Position numbers and translations under genes: made by a program. DNA of 64,000 nucleotides, from the NCBI RefSeq assembly GCF_000143415.4, contig NW_003314398.1, forward strand, positions 278,005 to 342,004, given 5' to 3'. Below are positions 11,801 to 54,888 of this stretch, piece after piece (the first letter of the stretch is position 1; every line of letters starts with the position of its first letter). This stretch comes from Selaginella moellendorffii (Eukaryota > Plantae > Lycopodiophyta). The notes under the pieces are model-generated. The model did not search any database and was not told where the DNA came from. It was given only the letters and a program-made list of their open reading frames with translations.

Positions 11801-11904
11801 TTCCTAGCCAAACTGGCTCCACTACAGTCCTCCCCCTCACTATACTTTTGGAGCTCACCAAACCCCTCAGGGTCTGGGAGACGAACGCTTTGGGCTTTCA
11901 CCCT

Positions 11905-12278
11905 CTCAGACTCGAACTCAGACTCGGACTGGGACTCAAACTCGGACTCAGACTCGGACTCGGACTCGGACTTGGACTCGGGCTCAGGCTCGGGCTCGGT
12001 CTCGGCCTTGGCCTCGGTCTCGATCTCGGTCTGGGTCTGGGTCTGGGTCTGGGTCCCGGTCTCGGTCTCGGTCTCGGTCTTGGTCTCGATCCCGGTCTCA
12101 GTCCCGGTCTCGGTCTTGACCTCAGACTCCATCTCGGGTCCATCTCAGACTCCATCTCGGACTCCACCTCGGACTCCAACTCAGGTCCATCTCGGACTCC
12201 ACCTCGGACTCCAACTCGAATCCATCTCGGACTCCACCTCGGACTCCAACTCGGGTCCATCTCGGACTCCATCTCGGA
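11905..12278. repeat. Shorter hexamer/12-mer array inside the family-B 5' LTR
   Basis: Same repeat units as 5407-5980, with fewer copies. Confidence 0.95.
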
Positions 12279-13284
12279 CACTTCCACGTGTCATGTGTTG
12301 GTCCTTTTGGGTCCCTTTTTGGAGCCTCACTTATTGCTCACTTCATGCTCGTTCTTTGCATGTGGCACCCTTTCAGCTCCACTTTGGGGCTTAGGGATTT
12401 GTATCTCACAGGGTTGAGCTTTAGCTTTTCCTTGAAAAGTGATTTAGTCATGGACAACGTTAACTTTATGAGATGAAGAGTTAGTGATTGATATTGGAGA
12501 TGTTTGAATCTTTATTAGATTTGAATTAGAATATGCCAATCATTGATGATTTTTCTTATGCTTGTTATTTAGTGAGTTACGTCTTGCTGTAGATGGATTT
12601 ATGGAGGATCGTTTAGTGATCATTTGTTGAGCATAGCTCCATTGTGCATAACTTTTGGATTGATGCAGATGTGCTCTTCATTAGCTTTGCATTATGTTGT
12701 TTAGCTTATGGATATGTTGAGGAGGATATTGTGGGTTATATTATGATTTCTTCTTCAGCATTGAAGTTAGTTCATGCAAAACTTGTGAACATTATTAGGC
12801 TAGACTTAACTATAAGCTTCTTCAAGTTTTTGGGTCTTTGAGTTTTCATGCTCATTGTTCCATTAGAAATTGTTGGGGAAAGCATTTTGACTCATTAACT
12901 TCAATGTTGAAGTTGGCTTTTGCATTTAGCAATCATTAGTGATGATTGGCTATCATCTAGGATAATTGAATATCCTTGTTAAGGGTTTTTGCTTGATTAT
13001 TGTTGGTATAGATTGATTTACCGTTCTTTGGGATAGTAGATTCTTTCTTCGACAATGATTATGCATTTCTTCATTGATGGGATGATTGATGATCTTCATG
13101 ATAGTTAGTTATTCTCTTTGATAACTTATGGCTTTTTGCATTACCACATGTTCTTTGTGGTTTGTTCTGGATTGGTCTATTGGGTTTGAGACATCAGTAA
13201 GATGTTGCTGACACTTGCTTAAGCAACTTGAGTTCCTTTGTATTGTTAATCGGGATCTATTCAGATTAGCTAGTGCGATGATTG

Positions 13285-16046
13285 GCATGAACGAGTGTTT
13301 GTTGGCCATGCAATATTCATTCTATTCTGTTGATTATTGCTCGAGTTAACTTTGATAGATTGAAATGTTATTACTTTTGGGTGATACATTCGCAAGCATT
13401 TTGCTTGCCAGTCAATGATACTTTGTGTTCTTTGAGTTATTTTTCGTAAGTTATTTAGCATACTGTCTGCCATCTTCAATAATTAAATTTTATCATTGAG
13501 TTTTTTGCTGATATGCTTGCTATTGAGTTTTGTTGGATGGTGATTCCTATGTTTACCAATTATGATGATCTTGGTGGTTGCTATACTATAATACTAGTTT
13601 ATCAGATGATAACTTACTTGGAATACTTTTGTGTTCTAATCTAAGCTTTACTCACTGATACTTCAGTCTCTTAGATATCATTGTCTTTGACTTTGATATT
13701 GTCCATCTATTGATCTTGCAACTTGGGCCAGTATAGGCAGACTGGCTTCAGCACTTCGTGTGCATGGTGAAATTTCTAGTCATAGGGTAGCTACTGTCGA
13801 CTGATCACATCACTTGCCTCTCTGTCAATGTTCCTCATTCCGTTAAAAGGGCGTGACCGTGTAAACAACTTGTAAGCAACCAAAGGGAACGACTCAAGAG
13901 ACGATCCATAAGGGTTCAAATATAGAGGGAAAAGGGCCCATGAATAAGAGTGCACCCCATTTTCCAATCGGTAAAGGGTCTTGGGATACTTGGGGTTAAG
14001 TGTCCTTGGGTTTGAATAGTACTAGGCTGGGTGACTTCCCGGGAAGTCCAAACTTAGGAGCTTACATTTGGTATCAGAGAGGTCTCGGGTCCGACTCTGT
14101 TGGTTGGCTTAGGGGAATCACACCACATGTTGATTGACATCTGGCTGGTCCAATTTGCTCCCGCTGGGCTCGACCCGAGGGGTAGGGTGTCAAGAGAGTT
14201 GGGGCTCTCGGGAGAGCTGCGGCTCTCAGCTTCCGTTCACGAGGGCGTGAACTTGCAGGGAAGCGTGGTGGATTGTAAGCAACCAAAGGGAACAACTCGA
14301 GAGACGATCCATAGGGGTTCAAATATAGAGGGAAAAGGGCCCATGAATAAAAGTGCACCCCCTTTTCCAATCGGTTAAGGGTCTTGGGATATTTGGGGTT
14401 AAGCGTCCTTGGGTTTAAATAGTACTGGGCTGGGTGACCTCCTGGGAAGTCCAAACTCAAGAGCTTAAACAACTCTAACTGCCTGTTTACAGTAGTCTAT
14501 CTAAACCTTACCAACGGGTTTGGTTTCTTTGTTTAGGAGGGTTGGGGCCTCTGGCTTCTCTCTCTATGTCCTTGTAACGTATCACACTTTTGTATGCTGG
14601 GTGACTCCCAAAGCAGCAAGGGTGGCTGACTCTGTTGGTCATTTCCTTGTCAGCGATAGCCGGAAGGTGTCTGAGTTGGTAGCGCATCTGCATTAGACAA
14701 AGAGGTTGGCTCATAACTCATTTAAGATGGTGCATTTCTCACATAGTGTGAGTACCGTGAACTTTTTCTGGAGTTGTTTCTTTGGCAGTATTTTAGACTC
14801 GAGTATGCATCGATGAGGACATCAATCTTCCCTAGGGGGAGAGTGTTGCGAATGTGATTTCGGGTATCGAAAGTTACCTGTTAGCCAATCCTTACGGACA
14901 CTCTTACCTTACTGCCACGATGGTAGGAGGTCGGTATTGTTAGGCTCGTTATCAGTCTCCGCCTAAGCTAGTCAAGAAACTAGTTTTCTCATGTGCACTT
15001 GATCAGATGAGCATAAGGAAGGAATTCCTAAGTGTTTATTTAGTCAAGCATACTTAACCTGGTTAGAGAAACTCATTCGTTGACTTGCATTTGCTAGTGT
15101 TGGGAACCCCCGCGATATTGAGCTTGGTCCCTCAATATTGCTAGATGATAGCTTACTGTGTTTGCCAAACACCCTTGCTATCATGCCTTTTGTGTTTGTC
15201 TTAATTCGGTCCCAAATGTTATTTATGGAAAATGTCCAGATTTGCTCATTTGGCATATCTATGGAATGTAGAGATTGTTCTAAATACAATGGTGTTCGTC
15301 TCGTGTCCAAATTCGCAATCTAGCACCATTCTATATTTAGTAAGTTTTGAGCTTGTCCTAGAGATTAACTACAGGGTAGGCTTGGGGTGAAAGCCCAAAG
15401 CGTGTGTTCCTCGGGGGGGGGGGGGGGAGCTGTTGGGGGTTCCAAATGTATAGTAGGGATAGTGGGTAGGTTGGATATGGCCAACCAACCTGAGGCATAG
15501 TCTAGCTCTCGCTTGCGTGTCTGTCTCTGTTCTGTGTCCGGCTTGGGTCTAAGCCCAAGTTCCATTCCATGCTAGCTAGTGGAGTACCCATGTCCCGCGT
15601 TAGGCTATCAGTATACCGAAATAGCACCAGACTCCGTTTAGCTCTATTTTTCGTGCTAGTCTTGGCATTGGGATGCTGGTTGCTCTAGGACTGTTCCAAG
15701 TCGCTCCGGGCTCCTGTTCCTTTGCTCCTTGGGCTGTATGCTCGGGAGTTGCTTCATGGACCGATTCCATCATTCCTTGGCTCTATGCTTGGGAGTTTGA
15801 CACCGTTCCTTCATTCAATGGCCTAAGGCCCTGAACCTCGGGTTCCGCACCACTATCCTATGGATATGTGGTATATGATATGTGGCATGTGTCACGTGGC
15901 ATAAAGAGGGTTTAGGTTCCGCTTCGTGGTGTTATCCTATGGTAAACCACCATAGGATAAAAGGTAAAAACCATGTGCGCTACAATGATATAGATAGAGC
16001 ATTGCCTTCTCAACATCATTTCTGATTGTGTAAACTTTTGGTATGC
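13285..16046 (+). repeat. Near-identical inverted copy of the 3' end of element A3 plus 62 bp of its unique flank; contains LTR 14844-15984
   Basis: Reverse complement of about 37722-35409 joined to 22386-22341. It includes the ATGAT TSD and the empty target site of the DNA transposon. The left boundary is approximate. Confidence 0.85.
13871..14469 (+). mobile_element. Full-length Cassandra-like TRIM with a 5S rRNA-derived domain in the LTRs
   Basis: 196-bp LTRs at 13871-14066 and 14274-14469; PBS TGGTATCAGA 14069-14078; TSD CAACT. The LTR segment GGTTAAGCGTCCTTGGGTTTAAATAGTACTGGGCTGGGTGACCTCCTGGGAAGTCC (14397-14452) matches the plant 5S rRNA A-box/IE/C-box region. Confidence 0.92.
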
Positions 16047-22220: not shown

Positions 22221-22386
22221 TCATGCTACTAGTCAACAACCACCTCTTGGGCTGCAATTTTCAAAAATGGTAATTCCCATTGCATGAACATCATATACCT
22301 CTACAATGTGCTAGAGCATTTTGCTAAGAAGCACTGGTTAGCATACCAAAAGTTTACACAATCAGAAATGATGTTGAGAAGGCAAT

Positions 22387-22410
22387 AAGCTCTATTTCGT
22401 TAAAGTGGGA
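22387..22410 (+). repeat. Left terminal inverted repeat (24 bp)
   Basis: Exact reverse complement of 35381-35404. Confidence 0.97.
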
Positions 22411-23046
22411 CTTATTCAGTAAAATGGGACTAAGTACAAATTTTCAAGTATTTGAAAATGACGTGAAATTATATGTTTTTTGTCCAGGGGCTAGACATAT
22501 CTGGGGCATGGTGACTAGCGCGGTGACTTTGTGTCCAGACTGAGTCCATTTGGTTGTATAATAAATCTCATTGTCTAGGTGAACAAGCCGAATCTGAAGC
22601 TAAAGAAGAGCGATGGCATGTGCGCACACACTATTTGTTTGTTCATTGAGCGTGTGGTGAGCTTTCCAAGATGAACGTCATTCCTATTAGCCAGACATAT
22701 AACTTAATGGTGAGAACATTTAGATATTATTCAATGTTATCTTTTTCTAACGAATCTAATTGTGAAGGTGTAGCAAAAGGCATTGCTAGTCTGGAGAAGT
22801 CATTTAACTCATTTGACCCTTAGTGTATTTTCATGAAACTAAATAACATTCATATTATTAAGGAATTTCTCTAGTACCTTTTTTTTACGACATAGAGGCT
22901 TGCATTTCTTTCAAAGGTGATTTAGTAAAAGGCCTGAGGGCACATGCCATTCTATTTCTCAGACCGGTATTAAGATATACTAGTGCAAAGGGAAAAAGGT
23001 ATTTGGTGATCAAGTAAATGGCATGAGGGCACACGCCATTATAAGC

Positions 23047-23304
23047 CTAAGCGCTAGTGGACACCTCCTTTTTGGTACTCTCAGCAGTACTATCATCCTT
23101 CTCCGGGTCAGTTGTTTTGCTTTGGATTGTTATCTCTGACGTTACTGGGGCGTTCTCGATAGTTGTTAATGTTGCCGTTTGTTCAGAAAAATGATCACCT
23201 GGAGTATAGTACGGGGAGTTTGAAAGACTTATATATTCTACATCTTCACCTATCTCCTTCTCCATCTCCTTTTCTGCCTCACTTACAGATTTTGTGCTTG
23301 CCAT
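23047..23304 (-). CDS. Small acidic Ser/Thr-rich ORF (85 aa) downstream of the transposase, function unknown
   Basis: MASTKSVSEAEKEMEKEIGEDVEY...; preceded by a TTTTAG acceptor. No recognisable domain. Confidence 0.35.
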   Translation of the reverse strand: MASTKSVSEAEKEMEKEIGEDVEYISLSNSPYYTPGDHFSEQTATLTTIENAPVTSEITIQSKTTDPEKDDSTAESTKKEVSTSA

Positions 23305-23944
23305 GAGAACGCTCTTCACCCTAAAATATGGAATTCGTTGTGTTATGAAAGGAAACCAACACACACGCTGCAAGGGAATGATGGTACATAAAGCACGTAA
23401 GCCCACAATATGGGTTTATGTGCCATTAATATGGGCCACATGCCATATTATTAGATTTATGCACGTGTGATTGGTAAATGCATATGTCACATCATCTTTG
23501 TTTTACCTCACACACTATATCAGGCCTAATGAACCATATCACATGTGCACACATACTATATATATGGAGAAGTATTATGCAAGGATAGAAAAATTCAATG
23601 CATGATTGTGGAGAGCAATGGCATGAAGCCACATGCTAAATAACATTTTAGAGAAAGAATTAAAATAGAAACATGCAAACAGTACTGAGTGGACCAAGAC
23701 TTAGAAGTGCACAATTGAATGAGGTATTTCTAATAAATATTTCACTCACCTCATATAGGAATGGCTACCACTCTCAAATGGCGTATCGCCTCATGCCATC
23801 ACCTCGCAATTTGTTATAACAATCCGATGAATTCATATTCGGCTTGTTCACCTTGAACTTTAAGTAAGATTTGCTAGAACAACTAAGAATTTATACTTGT
23901 TATTTGTATCATCTCACCTAGGAATGGCGTAAGGCCACATGCCA

Positions 23945-26900
23945 TCACGCCTCCTCTGATTCAGATTTGGATTGTTCACCTTGAAATAAAATACATTAGA
24001 AACTTAGTAAAGGAATATTAATGAATCTCACCTTGAACCCGGGTTATGAATGCTCTTGCTGCATCTCTTGCATGGTCTGGCAAGGTGATGGTGGCACTCT
24101 GCTTCCGCATCCAACCATGCACAACATTATCCACCGATATGCTCATGCTGGGATCCCTTGGATTCAGCACCCATCTCTTTTCTAGGCAATCCTTCGTATA
24201 TCCGGAACTTGGCTTGAACCACTCCACAGTTACATTGAAGGAGTTAGTTTCCGCGTCCTCCTCTGCATCAGTGATGCAGCGCCCCACCCATATCATTTGT
24301 TTTTTATTATTGGGTCTGACAAGCACGACCATTCCTTTGCAAACCTGTACTGGATTGAATGCTGAATCCGGCTTCTTGTTCCTTGGCCCACAATAGTGAT
24401 CCTCAACATCGTTATCTGTCACTGCATTTCCAGAGGACATTGTTCCGCTACTATCTGGTGCTCTGGGTTCTGGCCAAAAGGACTCTTCCAATTCTTCATA
24501 TACAACCGGCCCATTTTGGATAGCAGATATAATCTTCTCCCAGTATTCGAGCAAAGGCTTGCACCTCTGAAAATAGGATTCTCCACCAAACACCAACCCC
24601 CTCTTCCAGAAGGCAATATGCTATCTAATCCCGGCCACTATACTTTCCTGGTCTTTGAGTCCATCCGGGTGCATCGGCCGTGGGGAACCCTGAGGAATCA
24701 TAGGTTCCCCAGTTATGGGATCTCTCTTGAAGAGTTCAATGCCGTCCACTGGCAGCCACACTGTGTCCCATTCTCTCATCTTGTACCTCATCACTGGAGC
24801 ACCGTCACGCATGCTGAAATGAAACTAAAGAAGCTTGGAGTGGCCAATCAGCGTTTCGGATCCATCCCTGATGTAGCCTCTTACAAACTCTTAAAGTCTG
24901 GAACCTCTGTCAGAAGTGCAGCTTCAACAGTGCCTTTGATGCAATTTTGGAATTCATCGTAGAGTTGTGGGAGGGTGAGGACATTGGATCGCTGGAGGGA
25001 CTCTGCCAGGTGACTGAACATGGCATCGACGTCTTCATGAGTGTGCCCAACCATGAGAAAGCCAAGTGTAACCGTTTCAAATATGCCTTTGGTAATAAGC
25101 ATCGCCAAGTACGCGAAGATGTACATGTTTTTGTTCTCACTGCCAGCATTGTCTGTTTGGAGCAGAAGATGGGGTGGAAGGCCACATCGGCCGCAAGAAC
25201 TTCCTTGAGATTCTGCTTCGTTTGGATGAGGCTGTGCATTCACCGGGCGACCAGCCTCGTCGGAATGGCATGAGGCCTCACGTGATAACCCTACAATCTT
25301 ACGGCCAACATATTCACTGGGATGGCATGGGGCCCCATGCGATACTGCAAGCCTTTGCTCCTCCTCCAGCTAAACCCTGTATGGGGTTTGATCGACAAAG
25401 GCCTTATGCAAGGGTTGGCCGTTCAGCTCAGTCTGCGCACTTTGCAGAGACCTTAAGTGTTTTGCTAGGGACGCAATCATCATGTTTGCACCCCCGCCAC
25501 CCCATAGAGGTACAAAGAAGTTCCCATAGTTCTGGGCACCATGCCCATGAGCGATTATGCCAAACAGAGACACAGGTAGCTGCATGGATGAAGAGATTGC
25601 CTTGGGGGCAGGATTGAGTCGAGGTAAGCACGTCTTTTTCTGGTCCATTTTGTCGTGGATGATGCAGAGGTAAGAGTCAGGTCTCTCCATGGAGAGAATC
25701 CTGTTATGATAATATGCAGTCCTGCAGCTTCTCTACTCGATGTTGTGGTCGAGCCGCCTTCTAACCAACGTCTCTCGCTCTTGAGCGCTGCAAGAATTCT
25801 TCGACAAAGCCATTTTGATAGCAGTGCACTCGTCACACTTTGAAAAGCTGGAGTACTTTCCTATACTCACATCCCTGAACCTGTTGCTCTACAATCTACT
25901 AAATCTAGATTGGCTCAGCTTCCTGTAGCCATTACTCTGGAGTTCCCGATTCACATCTTCCAATATGGCCCCCTTGGTATACATGGAAGGGAGAACTCGT
26001 TGGGTATCTCGTGTTCCATCTTCCAAGAGGCGGGTTTTATGTGGTTGTTGCTCGCTACATGTCTCGACAAACCTTTTGAAGATTGCCTCTCCATATACAA
26101 CATGACCCCTGGTTTTGTGCGTACCGTCGTTCCCATGGACTGCCTGTTGAACCCTTTGTTCCTCGAACTCAGTTTTGATTCTGTAGAATGTGGTTCGAGG
26201 GACTCCATAAATGATTCTCCATGCCTTCATGCAGACCAAACCCCTCTGGAAGACCATGCCCCCCACCTGATGTTTTGAAGCATCAACAGATGACCGTAAT
26301 GCCTCATACACAAAATTGCGAGCTGCCTTCCAGGACAATGTCTTGTATCTTGCTCTCTCCTCTTCAATAGCATCCCAATCAGCATGTTGACAGCACCTCC
26401 TTTTGCAACAAGCAACTGTTGAGACCATTCGAACCTCCATCACCATTTTCTGCCTTTTCGGTTCGTTGCTCAGATCCCTTTGGCTGCGCTTTAGGAAGGT
26501 GTACTTTCTTTTCCCATGAAGAGATGTTCTGTCATCAGTTGTAGTGGTGTTAGATTGTGAATCCTTCACATTCTCAAACACTAAGTGCCTCAATTTCCAC
26601 CGCACAATGCTTCCAATAGTCAGACTGTTTTCTTCTGTGTCAACAACCTCTAAAATCGCAACTCCAATATCATCCCAGCCCAATTTTTGATTAGCAACCG
26701 CATCTCTTGGATCGACAACTGTGGCTAAGCCCTCAGCTACCACCTCCCCCTCGGGGTTGTTTAGAAACACCTTTGCCTGAATCCATGTAGCACGGTTCTT
26801 AAGATCCACGGAGGGAACATGCGTCGCACTTGCGTTGTCCCCAACATCTGCTTTCTTCTAAAGATTTTTCAAGGCAACAACAACATTTACCCCGACGACC

Positions 26901-27085
26901 ATCTCTCCTCGTTCAATAGCGACCACATTCCCATCGAAGATAGTCTCTACTGATACAGCAGCATTGCCTTCCCCAAGCCTTTGACAGTGTATAACAAAGT
27001 TCCGATCCATAGACACAAGGGTCCCTTTTGCAACTCTCTTCCCACCATTCAAAATGTAAACCTTTTCCCCAACCCTGAAGGCCAT
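23945..27085 (-). pseudogene. Sola-like DDE transposase (about 1,030 codons when reconstructed), disabled
   Basis: Six listed ORFs join into one frame through in-frame TAG stops (26858, 25889, 25733, 25370, 24825, 24621) and one frameshift near 24885. Motifs: FSKCDEC, IIHDKMDQ (D1), LQTDNAGSENKN (D2), FLMVGHTHEDVDAMFSHL (third acidic residue region). A probable last intron at 23980-24031 leads to a stop at 23945-23947. Confidence 0.88.
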
Positions 27086-28379
27086 TCTGAAAGTGCAGAA
27101 AAGAAGTTAAGACCATACAAAAAATGATTGGAGAATGGCCTAAATCATAACATACCAAACAACCTCAATAGCATGAAGCCACATGCTATTATTCAAACAT
27201 GCTATTGACACCCACGTGAAATTTCGCATTCACAAAATTGGCATGAGGCCTCATGCCATCTTGATATACACACAGCTGCAGGCAAGTAAAAACATACATG
27301 ACAATATGCTAGCCATGAAATTGCAAGGGCCCAAGATGGCATGTGGCCTCATGCCATTTCTAAATGTGGTCCTAAGCCATTCCATGGTGAACATACCAGG
27401 AAGCACAAGTGCCGAATATCAAGAGGAAGCGGTAGCCACACCAAAGACAGTGCCGCTCGCAACACAGCAACTACTCGTAGCGCCGCTCGCAACACCGCAA
27501 CTGCTCGTAGCGCCACTCGCACAAACTGCCACTCGCATAAACTGCCACTCGCAATGGCGCTCGCAATGCCGCAACCGCTCGTAGACACATAAACCACAGC
27601 TCACAACGCCACTTACACAAGCAGCGCTCACTGCGCTCAGCGGAACCAAGAACACGGCGCACAAAAATGATAGACCTAGGAATGAGTTCGAGAATTCAAA
27701 AATAACACACGCTTGAACGTCACATCAAATCCTCTGACAAACCAGATATTATGATTCCTCTGACAAATTTCAAACTGAGTAGCTTCTAGACTTTGCTGTC
27801 GGAGGTTGAACTTTGTCACATCATGTCCTTGCCTCGATCCAGCTGTGCCATGTTAGTGATTCGAACTTTGCCATGCCATGTCAGCGATCCGCGCCAAGAT
27901 TATTCGCCGTATAAAGGAATAATTATGCTGTGTGTGTACGTCCATTTATGGCAATATAAGGCCACACGCCATTCAAAGAATAATGTTAGTCGAGCATTTT
28001 TTGGTGCATTTTTGGGTTCAAAATTGCATGAGCCCACACGCTATAAAGTTTACTGTACCAAAAATAGAAACAACTTTATTTACTTGGGAATTTAAGTGGT
28101 TGAGGCATTTTTAAACTTACAAACACATGCCCTACTTACATTCCTTTGGTTGCTTAAAATTCAAAAATATTATAAACCTTTCTTTTTGCATTTTCAATGT
28201 TTTCAATTATGGTTTTTGATTTTTGCAGGACCAACCTAGTAATCTATTTGCATCCCGTCATGTTTATAGCTAGCTTTCGTTTGTCCCCTTCGCTAGCCTG
28301 AGATACATCTGCTCGGCATCTGCCTCTTACAGCATTTGCCCAGAAAGGGCATCTTTCTTCACGCAGCATTTGCCACATG

Positions 28380-28405
28380 TTTAGGGTTTAGGGTTTAGGG
28401 TTTAG
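28380..28405 (+). repeat. Interstitial plant telomere repeat (TTTAGGG)3-TTTAG (telo-box-like)
   Basis: Read directly; lies midway between the two divergent genes of the transposon. Confidence 0.85.
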
Positions 28406-29438
28406 CAATTCAGTAGCTTGATAAACATGCAAATACAGAACTTGATGCAAAATCCTCTGATATGTCACAATGCCCCTAGGACCATAAACACATTTCAATA
28501 GAGAGGGTCCTTTCATTTCATAACTCCTTACGTAGATCTTGGTGAAACCAGAGTTAGTGAAGTTGGTTTCTTGTGATCCCGCATCTGATTGTGATGTCCC
28601 TTTGCAGTGTCGATGGAAAGGTCAATGCACACCAAATTGTAGAATCTTGGAGCAAAATAACGGTCGGATCTATGGCAAATGCCCCTGAAACATTGTAAGG
28701 CTCATGTGGTCTCATGTGGTGTCCGATCGAGATGCTTCTTTGCAGGGTCATCAAGAAGGACATTGTATACCATTCTTTATTTAGCTGAACATCTGGCATT
28801 TTTGGAAATACAAGATGCTTTGGAATATCCAATCATGCATGGTATAAATATAGCGAGGGTATTAAATGATATCCCAATCATGATCTTTCTTTTGGATTTC
28901 GCGTGCATGCAGTCCGAGGAATGATGACGTTGCGGATTTCTTTTGGATTTCACGTGCATGCATGCGCGTGGCGATCCAGAAATTAATGGTGGCGCCCAAG
29001 TCCGAGGAATGATGACGTGGCGGGATTACCAACCGTTGTGACATTTCGCGCGTGTGAGGTTAGGTTTTGCATTTTGCATCGTACTCGCGCTCGCATCACG
29101 CTCCCACTCGCGATCACACTCACATTCACGCTCATCTACCTTCTCTACAGGTTTCTCGTGTGCATCGGCGTCCACTCGCGCTTGCATCACACTCGCGTTC
29201 ACATCGCGCTCGTGTGCATCAGTGTCCACTTCAAGACACACCCAGTTTGTAACTTCGCCGCCAACTCCGCCGCCCACTCCGCCACCCACACGCAGCCCAC
29301 TTGGCGTCCCAGGAAATTTCAGCGCCACTCTCCAACTGTAAGTGGCAGAGTAGCCTTGCTGCTACGATCCGCTGCACACACAGTGCACATTCGCCAGCGA
29401 GTCCGGCCTCGATTGTCACGGCCTCCATTCGGCTTTAA

Positions 29439-32400
29439 ATGGTAAGTCTTTTAGGCCAAGTAGAAAATGGCATGAGGCCACATGCCATTCAGTAGCAACA
29501 TTGGCATGCACCAATTGGGCTCTCGAGTGCAGTCCGGTTACAGATGGCGTGTAGCCTCACGCCATCTTAGGATGCAGCCTCAAGACATCTGATGCAGTGG
29601 TGAATGGCGTGTGGCCTCACGTTATTTCCAGCTGCTAGCTTTTCATCTGTCAGCTCTAATTGTTGTGCATTTCTAAACAGGCGAGGAATTGCGTTCTTCT
29701 TCCAGCCACTGTCAATGTGGATGCAGAGAAGGGGGAGGAGCTCACCAGTTGGACTTTCGGGATGGAAGGCGAGGATCTGAGGCTATACAACACAGATGGT
29801 GGGAGAAAAGAATGCATGGGGATCCTCATCCAAGTGACAGACACTCCATGCAGTTCCATGCAAGAATATGGACTGGCACTTGTGGTAGAGACAGTGTCCG
29901 CCTTCAAGATCCACCTTGCACATCCTAGCGGCTTCCCGGAGGGGGGCAGCGGTTATGAGGAATTCCTAGAGGGAGCTAGGGAGAGGTTGTCCAGGAGGCC
30001 CACAATTTCAAAGACGCTGCGGGTCTATGAAGATCACATGGAATCCACGGACCTCACCTACGGCGATGTTCAAAAACTATATTCTAACATTGAGCCGTTG
30101 AGAGTGCCTCCAGTTCGCGAAGCAAAGGGGAAGGGGGTCGATCTGGAAACTACCCCGAAGCAGAAAAGGGTGGTCAAGCTCAAGCCGATGTCCGACTCTC
30201 TTGCTCCAAAAAAGAAGCTACTCGGTGATGCCATTGCCTCGGATTCGAACACTACACCCACCAAAAAGAAGAGCCACAAAGAGCAAAAAGAGCAAGAAGA
30301 GGCAGCAAAAATCGTCGCAGATAATAGTACTTGTTACTATTCCAACAAAGTATATACAATCGACGTGAGTTGTATCGACATCCAAAGCAAATACAACCAC
30401 AGGCTAGTATCTGATGAGTGGGTGGAGAAACTGAAGCAGAAGATGTTGGCAAGTCCAGTAACACCCGACATCGCAGACGTGATCCCCTACTATCGAACAA
30501 TGAAGGGCGAGACGAGGTTTCCAGACTTGATCAATAGGAAGGTGTTGGACGATCAGAACATCCGGTTCTATGCCGTCTCTAGGCAGCATTCTAGCTTGGC
30601 GATGCAAGAGATAGTTGTGGATATTATGGTGGGCGAGGAGGTGAAGAAAGTCTTCAAGACAAGAGTTGTCCGCTTGATAAAAGGCAACTCGCCCCTCCGA
30701 TCTATCATATCCATCTCCCACGCGCAGAATGTCAAGCAAGAAACGTGCTACAAATCGGGTCTGCACGAGACATTGGCACGAACACGAAAGCTCTGGGTTC
30801 AACTGAAGAAGCCACAAAAACCAGGACAAGGACGTGCACTAGCAACTAGCGCCTGGCAGGTAAGCCTCGTTGCATGTGGCATAGCATGTGGCCTCACGCC
30901 ATTTCCATTGTAGGAATTCTCGAGTCTTCTCTCGAAAACACTGGGGGTCAATGACACACTCAGCATCCATAACATTCTACTCGCAACAAAAGTTGTTTTT
31001 GACAAATGGGTAGATGTGCTGAGGAGGTACCATAACGGGGAGTTGCTAAACTCAATGGGTGTGGAGGACGGCCGGAAGCCCAATGATTTGAAGCTCAACG
31101 CCTTGCATTTCTCGCGGTTTCTAGACGACGACGACCTTCTGACAGTGGCTAATGCTCTTCTATGTGGTGAGGTAGTCTTCAACAAGACCAAAATGACTCC
31201 CGGCCATATTGTGACATACGAGGACTTGTGCACGACTCTGAGAGCTCATGCGTTATTGAAGGATTGGATCTTCGAGCAAGTGGCCGTGGAGAGGGTGAGC
31301 ATCGACACCACGCAAGAGATGATGGAAGAGCTGGAGTTGTCAAATGAAGACATCGGCGAGTACGTGAAGGGGGCCCCCAAGTTCATCGATCTGCTGCGGG
31401 ATGCCACGAAAAGTAAAGCTGAGAAGTTGGATCAGTATCCAAATTTCATTAAGAGGGATGTCGACCGCCGGCTTCAGAAACAGCTCAACCCCGCAGCAGA
31501 GGCCTATCGAGAACCTTACCGGGTATATGTGAATTCGGATGAGGATCAAAGGTGGAGGAGCATCGTTTCCCGCGGAGATGAGCAGGTCAAGAACATCTTT
31601 TGTGTGATGGACTTCACAAACGAGGAGATCACTCATGCAGACGAAGTCAGCTCCATCATTGACTTAATGGTGGGACTTGCGGAGGTGGAATCTTCAGTCC
31701 ACTATATGATCTACGACTCCGAATCCTATCACAAGTTCTGGAAGGCCTTGAACGAGGTGAAGGCTCGGTTGAAAAGCAAGGAGATGCAGGAGATCCATGG
31801 GATAATGGCTAAGAAGAAGATACCGACGAATGTCCGCATCTTCACACTCGCCCTTGTTATTGGTCCTGCAGTAGAGTGGGATTGGAGTGACTTCCCAGCT
31901 TCATTCGACAAGGCCGATCGAATTGATCTGAGGGAGGTCAATTTACCCGTGCCTGAGGAACTGAAGACGGCTATGGAGCTTTTGAATCCAGAGAAAGCTC
32001 CAGGTGCAGCATGGGAAATGCTCAACTGGGTCTTCAACGCAATAGCGGGTGGGTCACCTGCTTCCAAGGGCAAATGCGTTGTCGAGTACAACTGCGGTGG
32101 ACTATTCTTTCGAGCCGCACTACTCAAGGGTGTCCCGTGTGTTGCGGTGACAAACTCCATTGAAGAGGTGACTTCAATGGAGCATATAATTATAGTTGCC
32201 AAAGAAAAACAGTATCTTCTCTGCGAACTTGGTGAGTACGCACTTTAAGTTTAAATGTTATCTCACAAGCTCTGTATGCAGGAGCGTGGCCACCCCCAGA
32301 TGCTGAAATGGCGTTAACAGCTACTGTTGAAGATACCCATGTTGGGCCGAGCTCACAACCTGCACAAGGTAAGGTCACGTGAGGCCTCATGCATTTTGAT

Positions 32401-34859
32401 TATAGATCGTTGTGAATATTCAGACACGAGGACTGAAAAGCGCACTGGTGGCGCGTCAAAGAAGGACAAACAGACAAGCAATAGGAAAAAAGGAGGTACA
32501 AATTATATTTGCAATAGCGTGTGGTCTCATGCCATTCCTTGCAGGAGACACTTCTTCAAAGGCAAAACAGGCAAGCACCAGCCAAGCTCAAACTGACAGT
32601 GGTCATAAAAAGTGAAAGCACGTTGGACAGTCGTCGGGATCAGAGGCGTTTGATTCGAAAAGGAAGAAGGGCAACGAAAAGATGATAGGTAATGCCTCGC
32701 GGTCACCACCTCCTGACTCAGATTCCTATGGCGGACTCCCCTTCCCCAATCTCAATGGAGAGGTACAATGGATGAGGGATGCTTTTCAAGTCAGGGCCAC
32801 GTTTTTCTCATCTCGTCGTCTTCGAAGGGTGCAAGAACGTGCAGAAACCATGTTAAGACAGTCGGGTGAGGATACGGTCCTAGGTCACGCACTAAAACAG
32901 GCTATGGATGTCTTGTATTTTGAGATGGAGACTCGGCCAGATGATTTTCCCAAGATGGTCCTGGAAGAACAAGCCATCCAACCTGAGCAGCCTATGGAAG
33001 AAATGCAGGAGGGGGATGAGGAGCCAGAGAAAGATAATGAGCAGGAAGAGTAGAAGGACGAAGAGGAGGACAAAGAAGAGGAGGACGAAGAAGAGGAGGA
33101 CGAAAAGGACTTGGATGGTCCTCACAATGGTGACGATCACAATAACGATGACAACGATGATGACGATGATGGCCAGCCTGAGGTGGCCAAAAAGCAGCGG
33201 AGGAAGGTCATACAAGACAAACCATCAAGTAAATAATAGTACATCCATTCTTAACCTTTCTAACATTGTCCATATAGGTTGCAAAGCAAATGGTAAGTAG
33301 AGATTATTCAGTTGAATTAAGATACAAACTCTAGCCTTTAGTGTCGAGGAAGGATAGTGCCAAGCAAGGGTCGAAACATATGTCCAATCCTTCAGAATCA
33401 GCAATGCGCCCAAGTGATATCGGTCCTAGTTCCTCAATAGCAGTTGATGGTAAATACAGTATAGTCGATTCAATGTGCTAATGAGTTTGTTTTTAGTAGC
33501 CAGTAGGGAGGATACCATCTCAATCGAAGGGAGATATTTGGACATGCATATAGATTCGGCAGTGGACTCTACTTGCTTGCAAGAGTCATCAGAGCTGGTG
33601 GAGGCTACTATCCATATCAACGCCAAGCAAGCTGACCACGCTCCACTTGATGCTGCCCATACCACTGAGTCAATTTTGTCCACGTATCCAACTGACGGTG
33701 ACCAGGCGCCATTGGACCCGCATGAGGCCGCCCCAGCCGCCGAGCCGGTCGTATCCTCATTTCCAACAGACTCAATGTGTGCCCAATCGTCTGACTACAC
33801 GCTGTTGGAACCTCCCTACACCGCCCCTGCTGCCTGTTCAGTCATGTCTACTTTGCCAACGAAGGCACCAGCTTAAATGGCGTGTGATCACACGCCATCG
33901 GAACCACCCCATGCCACTGTTGAGCCAGTTGTACCAGAGTCTACAGCTGAAATGGCATGTGCCCACACGCCATCGGATGCGATTGACCCCACATTGCAGA
34001 GGAGAGTATTTCCGCCCTTCACGTTTCCTCGACCAAAACCCTCTCAACAACCATCGGGAGCACCATTTGCTAATATTGTAGATGGTAAAATTGACTTGTA
34101 CCATTTTTTATGCTGACGCATTTCATTTCAGAGTCACGGCGAAGGTACTGTATCGTTTTTGATCTGAACGGTGTCCTTTTCTCCCATGAGCGTGGCTCGT
34201 CCTCGAATGTCACTACACCCTCCAAAGCCTACGGTCGCAAGTTGGTCAAAAGAGACAGATTCACATTAATCACACGGGAGAAACTGCGGGATCTAATAAT
34301 GACCATGCGACACTTAAAACAGAGGGCCGGGTTCAATTTGCAATTGGGAGTTTGGACATCCATGATGCGCCACAATGCATTAACGTTGCTACAGATGATG
34401 CACAATCAGACGCGAGTAATATTACCATTTGACTTTCTCCTAACGCAGGAGGATTGCTTGACTATGGTCCATGTGAGGGGTAGCAAGCCCATCTTCGTCA
34501 AGGCAGAGGCTGTAGTGATGAACCGGACTGCTAGGTCAAGTGAAATCCTCATCATCAATGACTCGCCGATTAAAACTGCAGCGAACACGCACACATATGC
34601 AGTGCACCCCATCTCTTGCAATATGGAAACTAGGGAGAAGAAACCGTATGTTCTAGGGGACTTTGCAAAACGGCTTGGAGCGATGGTGATAGAGAACCGG
34701 CCAGTCCAGGAGGTGGCTGCAGAAATCAACCAAATGGCAGATGGAACGGTATATCAGAAGCCATTTGATCGGACAGACACCAGTCATCATTTATGGCATG
34801 TATATTGTCTAGCCAAGCACTATCCACATCTCCATAATCTGCTCAACCGGACATATTAG
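29439..34859 (+). pseudogene. Multi-exon transposon cargo gene: ParB/Srx-like domain + degenerate N4C/N6A DNA methyltransferase-like domain + acidic linker + FCP1-like HAD phosphatase
   Basis: In-frame GT-AG model: ATG 29439-29441, then exons 29681-30859, 30914-32231, 32282-32368, 32424-32495, 32545-about 33228, small exons, about 33497-34084 and 34132-34859. Motifs: RLVSDEWVEKLKQKM...FYAVSRQHSSLA; EKAP...KCVVEYNCGGLFFRAALLKGVPCVAV; IVFDLNGVLF...VWTS...KPIFVK...IINDSPIK. Premature stops at 32613, 33051 and 33874. Confidence 0.72.
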
Positions 34860-35380
34860 AGAAGAGATGGCATTACTATTGGGTTTAAATCCTGATAGTG
34901 TGGAGAGTGATGAAATTCCAAGATTATTGTATAGGCGTTGGAGGCAAAAAATAACAGTCTGAGATGGCATGTATTTATTTAAAAATATAACTTATTATGG
35001 CATGGGGTTCCATGCCATTGTATTAATATTAAAAGACAATTCTTTGAGAGGATTTGCATTATACTAGAAGTGTTACAGCATGTTATTGGAAGTCTACGAA
35101 GTTGTTTTATTAATAAGGGGAAAGTAAAGATTGAATGGGGACTTGGGCTCCACCTAGACTCGGAGCAACTGAGCCAATATTAAAAGGATGGAAAGAAATT
35201 GGATGACGATGACAAAGAGAAGAGAGAGGTGAAGCAGTGGCAGGGGGAGGAGAAGTGATTGAGTAGACATTTCCTTGTTTAAAATAAAATGGCATGTGCC
35301 TCAATACAGTTGAATTTTGTTATATTTATATACTATATAAAGGTTTGGAAACCTTATTTTACAAGTGGGATAATGACAAT

Positions 35381-35404
35381 TCCCACTTTAACGAAATAGA
35401 GCTT
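35381..35404 (-). repeat. Right terminal inverted repeat (24 bp)
   Basis: TCCCACTTTAACGAAATAGAGCTT; a subterminal AAGTGGGA (35363-35370) can fold back on it. Confidence 0.97.
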
Positions 35405-36933
35405 CAATGCTCTATCTATATCATTGTAGCGCACGTGGTTTTTACCCTTTATCCTATGGTGGTTTACCATAGGATAACACCACGAAGCGGAACCTAAACC
35501 CTCTTTATGCCACATGACACATGCCACATATCATATGCCACATGTCCATAGGATAGTGGTGCGGAACCCGAGGTTCAGGGCCTTAGGCCATTGAATGAAG
35601 GAACGGTGTCAAACTCCCAAGCATAGAGCCAAGGAATGATGGAATCGGTCCATGAAGCAACTCCCGAGCATACAGTCCAAGGAGCGAAGGAACAGGAGCC
35701 CGGAGCAACTTGGAACAGTCCTAGAGCAACCAGCATCCCAATGCCAAGACTAGCACGAAAAATAGAGCCAAACGGAGTCTGGTGCTATTTTGGTATACTG
35801 ATAGCCTAACGCGGGACATGGGTACTCCACTAGCTAGCATGGAATGGAACTTGGGCTTAGACCCAAGCCGGACACAAAACAGAGACAGACACGCAAGCGA
35901 GAGCTAGACTGTGCCTCAGGTTGGTTGGCCATACCCAACCTACCCACTATCCCTACTATATATTTGGAACCCCCAACAGCTCCCCCCCCCGAGGAACACA
36001 CGCTTTGGGCTTTCACCCCAAGCCTACCCTGTAGTTAGTCTCTAGGACAAGCTCGAAACTTACTAAATATAGAATGGTGCTAGATTGCGAATTTGGACAC
36101 AAGACGAACACCATTGTGTTCAGGACAATCTCTACATTCCATAGATATGCCAAATGAGCAAATCTGGACACTTTCCATAAATAGCATTTGGGACCGAATT
36201 GAGACTAACACAAAGGGCATGATAGCAAGGGTGTTTGGCAAACACAGTAAACTATCATCTAGCAATATTGAGGGACCAAGCTCAATATCGCGAGGGTTCC
36301 CAACACTAGCAAATGCAAGTCAACGAATGAGTTTCTCTAACCAGGTTAAGTATGCTTGACTAAATAAACACTTAGGAATTCCTTCCTTATGCTCATCTGA
36401 TCAAGTGCACATGCGAAAACCAGTTTCTTGACTAGCTTAGGCGGAGACTGATAATGAGCCTAACAATACCGACCTCCTACCATCGTGGCAGTAAGGTAAG
36501 AGTGTCCGTAAGGATTGGCCAACAGGTAACTTTCGATATCCGAAATCACATTCGCAACACTCTCCCCCTAGGGAAGATTGATGTCCTCATCGATGCATAC
36601 TCGAGTCTAAAATACTGCCAAAGAAACAACTCCAGAAAAAGTTCATGGTACTCACACTATGTGAGAAATGCACCATCTTAAATGAGTTATGAGCCAACCT
36701 CTTTGTCTAATGCAGATGCGCTACCAGCTCAGACACCTTCTGGCTATCGCTGACAAGGAAATGACCAACAGAGTCAGCCACCCTTGCTGCTTTGGGAGTC
36801 ACCCAGCATACAAAAGTGTGATACGTTACAAGGACATAGAGAGAGAAGCCAGAGGCCCCAACCCTCCTAAACAAAGAAACCAAACCCGTCGGTAAGGTTT
36901 AGATAGACTACTGTAAACAGGCAGTTAGAGTTG

Positions 36934-50347: not shown

Positions 50348-50401
50348 ATTACTATAACAAATTATTTTACCTTGCACTACTGATTTTGATCAACCAGGCC
50401 A

Positions 50402-52202
50402 TTATATTTTCTCCATGACGAGAGGAAGACTGTGGCGAGGTCTGAGCGTAAGTTTGAACACTGGGCAGTGGCGATACGATGGTGACAACCGAAACCGGAA
50501 GTGCTGGAGAATGGTGGCCAAGGCGATCTTGGCTTCCATGAGTACAAAGGACTGGCCGACGCACACCCGGGGGCCAAGCGAAAACGGCATGAATGCGTTC
50601 GGGTGCTTGGACGCCTTGGTGACACCATCCTTGAAACGCTCCGGATTGAACTCGTGGGCGTCCTCCCCCCAGAGCTCCTTGTCGTGGTGGATGGCGAGGA
50701 TTGGAAAGGAGACCGCCGCTCCCTTTGGGACGAGGATATCTCCCAGTATGGTGTCCTCGAAGCACGATCGCATCATCACCCCCACCGGTGGATACAGGCG
50801 GAGAGTTTCGTGGAGGATCATGTTGATCTAGCCATGAGAAAGAAAGCTTGAGCTCGTGAAACTCGAAAGTAACGTAAAACCTTTACCAGCTTGAGCTTGC
50901 TGATTGAATCGGCTTCTGGAGTGGCACCTTCGCAGACTTCCTGGGCCTCGGCGCGAGCGCGCTCCTGCCATTCCGGGTGCAAAGCAAGCAGCATTATGGA
51001 CCAGGTGAGCAGAATTGCCGTCGTCTCGTGGCCAGCAAAGTAGAAAGTCTTGCACTCCTCCATCACGGCCCGATCATCGAAAGAAGAGTTTCCACACTCG
51101 GCAAGCATCAACCCCAGCAAGTCATGACTCTGGCCACTCTGAGCTCGCCGCTCCTTGATCAGGCCAAGCAGCAGCGAGTCGAGGTCGCTGTAGAGCTTTC
51201 TCAATCGAAAGTTTGCTGGAAACGGAAGGAATCTACGGTCGATCAGAAAATCGTGTTATAGTACGTAAACGAAAGAGATTTGATCACCTTTTGCCTGGTA
51301 TATAGTTGTATCGATTGACCTTGGAAAGCTCCTCTTGGATTGCTCTCAAGGTTTCGAAGGCCTTCTGGCCTTTGAGATAGCTGCTTCCGAATGCCGTGTG
51401 GGAGATAATGTCTGCGGTTAGCTTTGAGAATTCACTGCTCATTTCAATCTCGGGCTGCTCGCGGAGCGCTTCTTCCCACCTGTCTAGCATCTCGAGCGCG
51501 CACAGTCCGATACGGGGCACCATTTTCTGGTTTGTATGACCAAGTAATGAAAGTTGATAAGAAGCAAAGAAAGAAAAAATGGAACCTTGAGCTTCTCTAG
51601 GTAAAAAGCTGGAGCCACAACACGTCGATGGTAGCTCCACTCGTCACCTGTCACGGCAACGAGCCCTCGGCCAACTATGGAGACCAGTTCGGAAACCATT
51701 ATGTCCGACTTCTCAAACTGAGTAACTTTCTTGGCAAGAACTTCTCTGATGAGCTCGGGCTCTGTGACCATGATCCTGGGCTCCGTCGCCCACCAGTAGC
51801 AATACCTCTTTCCTGCGAAGAAATCGTCCAGAGTACAGGAATTTACGAGGAGAAGTTACCATATTCCTTGGACCACTGGTGGTAATCCAGCAACACATGC
51901 TTCACAATGTCGTGATTCAAGCCTTCCATGTCCCGCTCCTTGCCAGTATCTCTCATCTTCATCACCTGGAGCATGTTGCCGGCCATGAAAGTCCTTGGTG
52001 GCCCCTCGATACCCTGGCTTCGAATCCTTGCGTCGAGCGATCTTGGCTCCAGCCAGAACCTGGTGACAATCGATCGCCATAGCTTCGCAACCAGTGCTAG
52101 CAACACGAGCAGCGCGCCCGTCCACACTGCCTTGCCAATGCCCTCCATGAAATGCCCCATTGGATCAGATAATAATAATAAAGACGTATTTTTCGTGGCC
52201 AC
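50402..52202 (-). CDS. Cytochrome P450, CYP72 clan, 5 exons
   Basis: Exons 52202 (or a downstream ATG near 52150)-51860, 51812-51586, 51526-51288, 51232-50887 and 50827-50402 splice in frame. Motifs EECKTFYFAGHETT, ETLRLYPP, PERF and the heme loop FSLGPRVCVG. Confidence 0.95.
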
Positions 52203-52922
52203 CTGGATGATATCCAGTTCTGGAATTTTCCTAGAAACCTGGAAACTGTTTTCTAGAGAACTCCTTTGCTTAAGACAATCAATGGCGCCAAAATGGGACT
52301 TGGATCGTCAGGAAAATGAATAATTTGAATGTTTGAACATATATAATTATTTAAAAATAAATTTAGTTTCTGAGTTCTGTCGTTATCGCATCAGGGATTT
52401 AATGTAATGCTTGTCAAGATCTTTCAGCAAGCACTGAACACCTTTTACAATTGAAAAATCTTCTAAACTCTCAGTGGCAGTCAGTGACAGTCCGTGTGAT
52501 TCTGAGCAAAGACTGTTGTGGTCTTCAATGCCATGCGCCAGCCCGTCAACTTTTTGTCCCTTTGTATATCCACGGGCTCCCCGAAAGCAAATTTCATAGA
52601 CATGTTTCTTTCAATGGAAGAAGTCTTGCGGACGAGACAAAAGCGATCGGACCCAACACTTCTTTATGGTGGTATCTTTGCAGGCCCGTCATTGATCCAA
52701 AGATTAGGTGGATCATGGTTATAAATGCATCTAAAACTTGTTCCTCTTCGTGTTTGATCTCTCCGCGCTACACGAAAAGAATCGCCATCTCCATACATGG
52801 TCGGTTGAGTGATTGGATACCTTTTCGCAAAACCTGGCTTTGATTCCGGATCGTTTTTGTGATGCATGGGCCGTGTCTTGTTTTGGCAGGAGGAGCACGC
52901 TGTCGAGTTACACAAATCCAGT

Positions 52923-54888
52923 ATGAATCTCGAGGCAGGAGCCGAGGGAGACCAGCGAGCCGAGGATCCCGAGTGGAGCACGACTTGGCGAGGCCGCCGA
53001 ATCGTGAAAGGAGGCTGGAAGACGAGCCCTTTCATCTTTGGTATAACTCTCTCCCTCGAGCATTCTGCAAGGATCTAGAAGATCGTCATCTCGCTTTGCT
53101 GCTTGACTTGCAGGGAACGAGGCGACTGAGAAGCTGGGAGCCATTGGACTGCAAGTGAATCTGGTGACATACCTCGTCCAGCAGCTCCATTTCAAGCCGG
53201 CCGATGCGTCCAACACCCTCACCACTTTCGGCGGGACCGCAGCCTTCACACCCTTTGTCGGTGCCATCATCGCTGATGCGTATGTTGGTCGCTACTGGGT
53301 GGTGCTCTTGGGCTCTATCCTCTTCACACTGGTAAGAAACCATCCATCCCTCCATCTAGCCAAAAGTTTGGATAGATAGAGCCTTCTCCGGTAGATTCTA
53401 CGAGGGGAATGATCGATAAGATATAATCATCGTAAGATCGAGGATAAGTCAAAGAAGAAGAGAAGAAAACCAGAGAAAGAACAAGAGAATCAGATACTAG
53501 AAGCCTAGAAAGGATCAATCTCAACTGTGGAGCACTGATTTGATTGGTGGCTTGGCAGGGATCCTTCGTTCTTACGATCCAAGCCCTGGTTCCCAGCCTG
53601 AGACCCGACCAATGCGCGGCGAAATCATCGCTGTGCGAGCGCTCGACAGTGGGTCAGCTGGGATTCCTGTACCTCTCCTTCGTTTTGCAGGCCGCGGGCT
53701 CGGGCGGGATCCGGCCATGCGTCGCTGCATTTGGGGCGGACCAATTCAACGAGGAGGATCCCAAGCAGCGCACCCAGATCCTCCACTTCTTCAACTGGTA
53801 CTACTTCACACTCCAGCTCGCCACGCTCATCACCTCCACCGTGTTCGTGTGGATCCAAGACAACGTCGGCTGGGCCGTCGGATTCGGCCTCCCCGCCGTG
53901 CTCATGGCGCTGTCCGTCATCAGCTTCNNNNNNNNNNNNNNNNNNNNNNNNNNNNNNNNNNNNNNNNNNNNNNNNNNNNNNNNNNNNNNNNNNNNNNNNN
54001 NNNNNNNNNNNNNNNNNNNNNNNNNNNGGACAAGCTGCGATCGTAACAGACGATGACCAGCGGCGCAGCGGCGGCGATGTGGACCCCTGGAAGGTGAGCA
54101 GCGTCCACAGCGTGGAGGAGCTCAAGCTGCTGCTCCGGCTGCTACCCATCCTATGCACGGGCGTGCTCGTCTTCACGGCGTGGGCGCAGCAGGGCACCTT
54201 CTGGGTCCAGCAGGGCCGGACAATGGACCGCCGCCTCGTCGCCTCCAGCTCCTTCGAGATCCCGCCCGGATCGATGACGGCATTCACCACTCTCGCGCTG
54301 CTCGTCCTCATCCCGGTCTACGACAAGCTGGGGATCCCAGTACTGCGCCGGATCACGGGCCACCCCCGCGGCCTCACCTCCCTCCAGAGGATGGCCATCG
54401 GCCTCGTCGTCTCCATCCTCGTCATGGTGGCCGCCGCCGCCACCGAGGTGAAGCGGCGCAGCGCCGCCGCCGCCGCGGGGCTGCTCGACTCCCCCGACCG
54501 GACCATCCCCATCTCGATCTTCTGGCTGCTCCCGCAGTACGTGCTCATTGGGGTGACGGAGCTCTTCCTCTCCATCGGCCAGATCGAGTTCTTCTACGAT
54601 CAGTCGCCCGAGAGCATGCGAAGCATGGCCACGGCGGTGTTTTGGATGGTGATTGGCGGTGGTAACTATTGTAGCACCGCGATGGTGAGCGCCGTGCACG
54701 CCAGGACCAACTGGGTGCCCGATAACATCAACCGCGGACGGCTGGATTTGTTCTACTGGATGCTGGCGGGGATCCTGACCGTCAATCTCGGCGTCTACTT
54801 GGTGGTGGCAAGGTGGTATAGGTACAAGCGCTGGAACGACGTGCCCGAGGAAAATGGGAAGGTTTTGAAAAAGGTGGAGCAAACTTGA
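52923..54888 (+). CDS. NRT1/PTR family (NPF) transporter, NPF3/NPF2-like
   Basis: Exons 52923-53040, 53114-53331 and 53559 onward across the N gap to 54888. Motifs GGWKTSPFIFGNEATEKL (ExxEK), GSGGIRPCVAAFGADQF, FFNWYYF, EFFYDQSPESMRS. Confidence 0.93.

Follow-up and report, generated by a model that had tools for sequence, protein, structure and literature searches.

The window analysed here (the whole 64,000-nucleotide stretch of Selaginella moellendorffii DNA) contains a complete DNA transposon in which an accessory gene (+ strand) and a transposase gene (- strand) are arranged head-to-head between terminal inverted repeats (TIRs) of 27 bp (Table 1). The element is flanked by a 4-bp target site duplication (TSD), CAAT, at positions 22383-22386 and 35405-35408. 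An empty site was found at positions 15960-16046 in a paralogous copy of an LTR-like repeat, in which the flanks are continuous and the target is present once, indicating that the element is a true insertion generating a 4-bp duplication. The original prediction, which described the accessory protein as transposon cargo, is borne out by the TIRs, the TSD, the empty site, and the DUF7869 transposase encoded on the opposite strand. Multi-kb inverted repeats around the element were considered as giant TIRs and rejected, since they are copies of the LTR-like repeat hosting the insertion. A CACTA/Plavaka assignment was dropped because the TSD is of 4 bp and the ends are not of the CACTA type.

Table 1. 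Features of the element and of its two genes (positions in the window).
Feature	Position	Strand	Basis or remark
Complete DNA transposon, Sola1-like, 13,018 bp	22387-35404		TIR pair, TSD and empty site
Left TIR, 27 bp	22387-22413	+	96% complementary to 35378-35404
Right TIR	35378-35404	-	Pairs with left TIR
Transposase gene, several coding blocks, broken	24018-27085	-	Pfam DUF7869 (E=3e-35); translations
Accessory gene, predicted 10 exons, ~1,593 codons	29439-34859	+	GT-AG chain, sequence-predicted splicing
Predicted exons of accessory gene	29439-29441, 29681-30859, 30914-32231, 32282-32368, 32424-32495, 32545-33228, 33278-33292, 33342-33449, 33497-34084, 34132-34859	+	
ParB/sulfiredoxin-like N-terminal domain (NHR, Box I-like; SRQHS, Box II-like)	30350-30760	+	Atlas; profile-profile alignment
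Helical linker, conserved among plant relatives and a candidate for DNA recognition	30760-31500	+	Best-scoring stretch against P0002 and P0003; helical in models
Beta-class amino-methyltransferase-like domain (DFTN, 31610-31621, at motif IV; EYNCGG, 32084-32101, at motif I)	31514-32231	+	VIA-align; Atlas
Low-complexity, charged, acidic spacer, exons 4-9, containing the three premature stops	32282-34084	+	
FCP1/SCP-like (NIF) HAD phosphatase domain, last exon	34132-34859	+	Pfam NIF, 22.6 bits (cut-off 21.8), E=9.3e-05
22-bp palindrome repeated along the element (consensus ATGGCRTGWGGCCWCAYGCCAT; 20 copies, each with 4 mismatches or fewer)	22613-35018		Pattern search and repeat family D1

Positions 16-22 of the left TIR read AAAGTGG, as do the same positions of the TIR of the insect element Sola1_NA (PMC3845634). 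The 4-bp TSD and the AAAGTGG-bearing TIR point to the Sola1 superfamily, an assignment made from the TIR and the TSD, the transposase itself matching DUF7869. With respect to the AWWT target preference of Sola1, the single insertion available (CAAT/ATTG) agrees at three of four positions, and a Sola1 family of Ectocarpus also departs from this preference (PMC12477816). Sola elements have been described as absent from angiosperms (PMC9804982).

The transposase gene of the window copy is interrupted by in-frame stops near positions 25889 and 25730 and by a one-base frameshift near position 24887, where other copies represented by contigs carry an extra base. Contigs from three sequencing runs (67,681 and 158,394 contigs from two of them) covered all 30 bins of the stretch, which indicates that many variant copies of the element exist, although this cover gives no copy number. 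Comparison of the window copy with the other-copy contigs revealed 402 differences and an identity of ~98.5% across the accessory gene. In run X6, 179 of the 218 changed places were A>G or T>C in the direction from the window copy to the other copies. This excess indicates that G>A and C>T changes have accumulated in the window copy by decay, and this copy of the element is itself dead.

The exon chain of the accessory gene is supported by prediction. It starts with an ATG micro-exon (29439-29441) and ends at a stop codon at 34857-34859. The nine predicted introns are all of the GT-AG type, eight of them of 47-55 nt and one of 239 nt, and their phases chain the exons into a single frame. Four acceptors were tried for exon 9, two of which preserve the frame. 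The frame is open across 909 codons; the three premature stops are located at positions 32613, 33051, and 33874. The original prediction placed the protein at positions 29681 to 32231. These limits do coincide with an AG acceptor and a GT donor, and they enclose two exons in frame, separated by a phase 0 GT-AG intron of 54 nt (30860-30913), but they correspond to exons 2 and 3 of 10 only. In one sequencing run presumed to be RNA, a contig continues straight across intron 1, and the predicted introns were matched by none of 15 of the 176 joints. This run is silent on splicing.

The N-terminal part of the accessory protein probably adopts a ParB-N/sulfiredoxin (Srx) fold, a conclusion drawn from sequence comparisons. 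The peptides on which the original prediction was based are all present, VYTIDV being encoded from position 30350, NHR from position 30395, and SRQHS at positions 30578-30592. The reading of SRQH as one change away from SGQH is also correct, the Arg codon AGG differing from GGG by a single G>A substitution. As that prediction had anticipated, GQH was found in the three relatives that cover the ParB part (SGQH, SGQH, and DGQH at this position). In the language-model search Atlas, the ParB part scored 0.95 with DUF3723 clusters of fungi and 0.92 with a ParB_N cluster (35% ParB_N). No publication connecting DUF3723 to ParB was found in a search in which subscription journals were thinly covered. 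Alignment with hhalign of a four-member family profile to ten phage ParB_N domains gave an E value of 0.0012 over 52 columns, a score reached by none of 100 column shuffles, and paired NHR with NPR and SRQH with DGH-R. With the window protein as a single sequence against a ParB HMM, the score was reached by 7 of 200 shuffles. The N-terminal 216 residues did not match P0004 significantly (E=0.059). The model of the ParB part has a mean pLDDT of 43, and the order of its elements fits ParB/Srx. The ParB/Srx-like domain of the original prediction is moderately supported by the profile alignment and the Atlas match. Fold searches returned only generic helices and no ParB/Srx row and are uninformative for such a poor model.

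In ParB CTPases, the arginine of the Box II motif GxxR is required for nucleotide binding (PMC12704722). The Box II-like SRQHS of the window protein is devoid of this arginine. It is also missing from the three independent relatives (GQHS, GQHS, and GQHT), hence from all four members, making a CTP-clamp mechanism unlikely. ParB CTPases also possess an HTH domain that recognises the palindromic parS site. In the window protein, the ParB-like domain is followed by a helical region, in which no HTH was identified, although palindromes are present in the element (see below).

The C-terminal part very probably has the permuted Rossmann fold of a beta-class amino-methyltransferase (CcrM/PvuII/MboIIA type), as judged from structure models. 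The peptides proposed for this part were located at 31592-31621 (NIFCVM-DFTN), 31991 (EKAP), and 32075-32101 (CVVEYNCGG). In the model of exon 3, DFTN follows the strand formed by residues 225-231 and EYNCGG the strand formed by residues 388-392, so that motif IV precedes motif I, as originally proposed. The pLDDT of this model is 46.6 overall and ~55-75 over residues 201-300. A VIA-align search against 48,161 chains returned beta-class N6A/N4C methyltransferases for all of the 11 top rows (Z 6.4-8.0, rmsd 4.3-5.3, 158-205 aligned residues), including CcrM (Z 8.0), M.BceJIV (7.9), MboIIA (7.2), EcoP15I Mod (7.1), rotifer N4CMT (8s9n; 7.0, rank 5), and M1.HpyAVI (6.4). The first unrelated row had a Z score of 6.0, and the best score, 8.0, falls in the range that the tool calls common. 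When Foldseek candidates were re-aligned, beta-class enzymes occupied the top 9 of 999 ranks, the same exon 3 model being used. Foldseek itself returned nothing at E<=0.001 against PDB and BFVD and placed PvuII at rank 44 in one search. For this part, Atlas returned unnamed clusters (0.94) and an N6_N4_Mtase cluster (0.89).

At the profile-profile level, the methyltransferase part gave E values of 0.21 and 0.14, neither of them significant, and 8 of 100 shuffles reached the score. These alignments cover the strand-helix-strand of motif I, the motif I region pairing with DPFAGS of a phage/E. coli profile. A methyltransferase HMM did not separate the window protein from its shuffles, whereas P0010 and P0012, two of the relatives, each outscored 200 of 200. 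Pfam detected no match to PF01555 in the window pieces or in 11 relatives. ParB or methyltransferase families gave no sequence match in Pfam, PHROGs, NCBIfam, or PDB. A Pfam SLT match (E 0.03-0.09) and PDB DndE matches (E 0.3-0.9) were set aside as chance.

The last exon, which is in frame in the gene model, encodes a predicted NIF domain, the Pfam match being barely over the cut-off. The catalytic motif of FCP1/SCP-like HAD phosphatases is DxDx(T/V). The window copy departs from it with DLNGV, the Asn codon AAC being one G>A change from Asp. No NIF domain is seen in any of the relatives found, and P0002 and P0010 end without it.

The element is punctuated by a 22-bp palindrome. All 20 matches detected in the window are inside the element, none being present in the other 51 kb or in any of 30 shuffles. 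The search pattern was derived from these copies; a pattern-free repeat search returned the same family as D1. Palindromes are located in both flanks, between the coding blocks of the transposase gene, and upstream from it. Within the accessory gene, three copies are present in intron 1, one each in introns 2 and 5, and two in exon 9; an additional copy in intron 4 has five mismatches. The palindromes are thus kept even in introns of 49-55 nt. Six copies are found within 1.6 kb of the left end, and the right end has one full copy. The original prediction had missed this array, as well as the C-terminal NIF domain, the Sola1-like element, and a published algal precedent considered below.

Our preferred reading, which we hold tentatively, is that the accessory protein of this Sola1-like element may bind the 22-bp palindromes of its own element and act as a non-methylating, element-specific chromatin regulator. 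Since ParB-N and beta-class methyltransferases both form dimers, the ParB-helical part might dimerise on the dispersed palindromes. The dead methylase would serve as a scaffold or as a reader of bases, and the FCP1-like phosphatase would be delivered as an effector keeping the element expressed or mobile. This scheme would parallel both a proposal made for algal accessory genes and the VANDAL anti-silencing proteins. Anti-silencing has been shown for VANDAL proteins. A more complete scenario is possible but rather unlikely as a whole: a prokaryote-derived ParB-methyltransferase fusion would have lost both activities, become the reader of a parS-like palindrome distributed over the entire element, including its introns, and gained an RNA-polymerase-CTD-type phosphatase effector, thereby forming a self-addressing chromatin module of land-plant Sola1 elements, of which a truncated derivative could now be a host gene in S. 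moellendorffii.

The palindromes could instead be binding sites used by the transposase for transpososome assembly, the accessory protein, with the same folds, helping in another manner, for instance by partnering the transposase or RNA polymerase II. Transposase-bound subterminal repeats are common in DNA transposons, and both the cluster of six copies near the left end and an accessory protein without an identified HTH or a Box II arginine would suit this alternative. We consider it rather unlikely, since the palindromes mostly lie away from the ends, within introns and about the starts of the two genes, and the right end offers a single full copy.

The proposed lack of methylation was examined at the level of the catalytic motifs. 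The 8 reference enzymes compared all carry PPY in motif IV. DFTN is present at this position in the window protein, and PP(Y/F) is absent from relatives P0002, P0007-9, P0010, and P0012. At motif I, DPFxGxG is replaced by EYNCGG in the window protein, EYGCGG in the S. moellendorffii relative, and DINTGG in P0010, the sequence VEYxCGG being common to the first two. Also missing from the window protein is the acidic residue at the end of the strand that follows motif I (CVAVT). Conversion of DFTN to DPPY requires four changes, two of which are transversions, whereas the decay of the window copy is of the transition type, so that DFTN is unlikely to have arisen by mere decay. Other-copy contigs differ from the window copy by only 15 letters over the 1,072 nt spanning both motifs. 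Since degeneracy affects motif IV, motif I, and the ParB arginine both here and in plant relatives, the accessory protein is probably a pseudo-enzyme, and catalytic degeneracy is not confined to the window copy. The suspicion of a pseudo-enzyme voiced in the original prediction is thereby strengthened, neither PP(Y/F) nor DPFxGxG having been found in the window protein or in the plant relatives spanning the region.

These observations make it improbable that intact copies encode active 4mC/6mA methyltransferases marking their own element, with motifs that are eroded here or form an unusual active variant. Such an activity matches the model proposed for the Ectocarpus gene (PMC12477816), and clades with unusual strand-4 motifs do exist (Iyer et al., 2016; PMC4738411). 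The fold and the motif order are retained, the aspartate at the first position of motif IV is kept (D233, invariant in alignment A3), and G>A and C>T decay is plain to see in the window copy. Against this, the catalytic motifs are absent from all relatives examined, the acidic residue is missing, and the other copies are nearly identical to the window copy, with differences that are mostly transitions.

A search of 1.84 billion representatives returned five relatives at E<=0.001. They include one sequence from S. moellendorffii and one from the liverwort Calypogeia fissa, and no named prokaryote, which does not support the recent prokaryotic transfer implied by the original prediction. Alignment of the family with bacterial enzymes was unreliable at this divergence. 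Two word-index homologue searches gave no match, and a third returned P0003 itself and nothing else. Searches of phages by tblastn returned five records at E 3-4. None of 22 candidates from viral contigs was confirmed, and the only match among 20 from metagenomes, L001, spanned 18 residues and was rejected for want of a supporting ORF. Two of the ParB-covering relatives terminate no more than a few residues from the intron site, and two Selaginella annotations differ exactly there, suggesting that the intron is shared with the relatives and that the family is an old eukaryotic one rather than the product of a fresh transfer.

The relative of S. moellendorffii is present at nearly a single locus and is annotated without the ParB core or the NIF domain, as might be expected if the gene were neutral cargo, derived from a host gene or a chimera that was picked up a single time and has since been transported passively in the manner of a Pack-MULE. 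Such passive carriage is very improbable in view of the element-specific palindromes inside the short introns of the gene, of the 909-codon open frame in a family of repeats of which many variant copies exist, and of the occurrence of the same domain pair in a brown alga, again opposite the transposase of a Sola1 element (PMC12477816). An error in one or both fold assignments, the motifs being chance likenesses in a generic alpha/beta protein, would be in keeping with the low-confidence models (pLDDT 43 and 47), the lack of a Pfam, PHROGs, NCBIfam, or PDB sequence match to either family, and the absence of ParB from fold searches of a poor model, but it is very unlikely since eleven different beta-class enzymes outrank every other fold, the language-model search independently gives N6_N4_Mtase and DUF3723/ParB_N, and the profile alignments land on the motifs named at the outset.

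A ParB + methyltransferase gene on a Sola1 element is already known from the brown alga Ectocarpus. In Sola1-1_Ec32, a gene encoding a 1,104-aa protein with ParB-like and N4C/N6A methyltransferase domains lies opposite the transposase, and binding to and modification of its own element have been proposed (Dinatale et al., 2025; PMC12477816). The two elements have in common the Sola1 type, the 4-bp TSD, an accessory gene and a transposase gene on opposite strands, and both domains. They differ in host (brown alga versus land plant), size (21.5 versus 13.0 kb), and TIR (282 bp and imperfect versus 27 bp). Compared by description, the window element additionally displays degenerate catalytic motifs, an extra NIF domain, and element-wide palindromes, of which the available text on Sola1-1_Ec32 makes no mention (PMC12477816).

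In the red-algal Plavaka elements, PAG2/PAG3 include a ParB-like accessory protein, and inverted repeats have been proposed as binding sites (Petroll et al., bioRxiv 10.1101/2025.02.11.637652). These elements share with the present one the status of giant DNA transposon, a ParB-like accessory protein, candidate inverted-repeat sites, and a methylase accessory gene. However, in Plavaka a 2OG oxygenase is the fusion partner of ParB, the methylase is encoded apart from it as a Pfam-detectable SET fusion, the transposase is of the EnSpm/Plavaka type, and the repeats form tandem arrays beside PAG3 instead of palindromes dispersed along the element.

Fusions of ParB_N to N6_N4_Mtase were found in phages and prophages, for example Wolbachia phage WO and Streptococcus phage Javan124. 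They share the domain order and both folds with the accessory protein but are of ~410 aa, retain both DPPY and DPFxGSG, have a short linker, and are devoid of introns, spacer, and NIF domain. No sequence-level match was detected between these fusions and the plant family. Marchantia MpDN4MT1a/b and rotifer N4CMT are eukaryotic and have the beta-class fold, but they are active host enzymes that keep SPPY (bioRxiv 2021.02.12.428880; PMC10406627); a link to these enzymes is not supported beyond this fold. The term 'ParB' does not appear in the available text of the Marchantia preprint (bioRxiv 2021.02.12.428880). In chlorophytes and chytrids, Dam enzymes fused to a ParB HTH have been traced to phage loci (Iyer et al., 2016; PMC4738411). 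This chlorophyte-type family is likewise eukaryotic and links ParB to an amino-methyltransferase, but it belongs to group 2, is unpermuted, and contains a ParB-type HTH. The same study provides a precedent for dead enzymes on transposons, inactive methyltransferase domains being carried by DIRS1 elements (PMC4738411).

We found no publication on a ParB + methyltransferase transposon gene in land plants, subscription journals being thinly covered by the search and the algal papers alone being relevant by title. The present analysis adds to the Ectocarpus precedent a land-plant Sola1-like setting, a family-wide loss of catalytic motifs, a fusion to NIF that is predicted, and a clearly delimited candidate site for binding. 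This loss across plant relatives argues against self-methylation as a general function of such genes, and the accessory gene does not demonstrate a new 4mC/6mA writer in plants. The element of the land plant offers a single candidate protein together with a precisely delimited candidate site of 22 bp. Elsewhere in the window, the neighbouring genes include members of the P450 and POT families (Pfam).

The premature TAA of the accessory gene, located at position 33874 in predicted exon 9, corresponds to GAA at the equivalent site in the sister unit of a 34-bp direct repeat. The annotated S. moellendorffii relatives of the accessory protein (P0002 and P0007 to P0009) start directly downstream of the ParB core and end directly past the methyltransferase-like domain. 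Near-identical versions of the relative are carried by two scaffolds. Either domestication of a single-locus derivative or an artefact of annotation could account for this relative.

Two small β-rich segments of the transposase N-terminus (VAKGTLVS... and VAEGLATVV...) are alike, and one more such segment is present at the C-terminus; a Pfam search with these segments returned no match. One set of CG-rich tandem repeats is located immediately 5' of each of the divergent genes, and these repeats are possible promoter or 5' UTR elements. Roughly three units of TTTAGGG, a repeat of the plant telomere type, also lie in the intergenic region.

The Sola-like element is inserted approximately 20 bp beyond one LTR end, outside the LTR, and long 12-bp tandem arrays are present within copies of the flanking LTR-like repeat. 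Assembly gaps are found close to the host genes.

Repeats, transposase segments and host genes in the window
Feature	Position	Remarks
LTR-like repeat	1-22386 and 35405-48400	Copies nested and partly inverted, both sides of element
12-bp tandem arrays	5380-6000 and 11875-12335	
Transposase C-terminal segment	24018-24330 (-)	
Transposase N-terminal segments	26520-27085 (-)	
CG-rich imperfect tandem repeats, short	27443-27584 and 29083-29211	Repeat search, families D4, D10 and D14
TTTAGGG repeat	28381-28403	
34-bp direct repeat	33869-33977	Repeat search, family D8; two palindrome copies
One cytochrome P450 gene; two or more genes for POT/NPF transporters	50400-57200	Host genes
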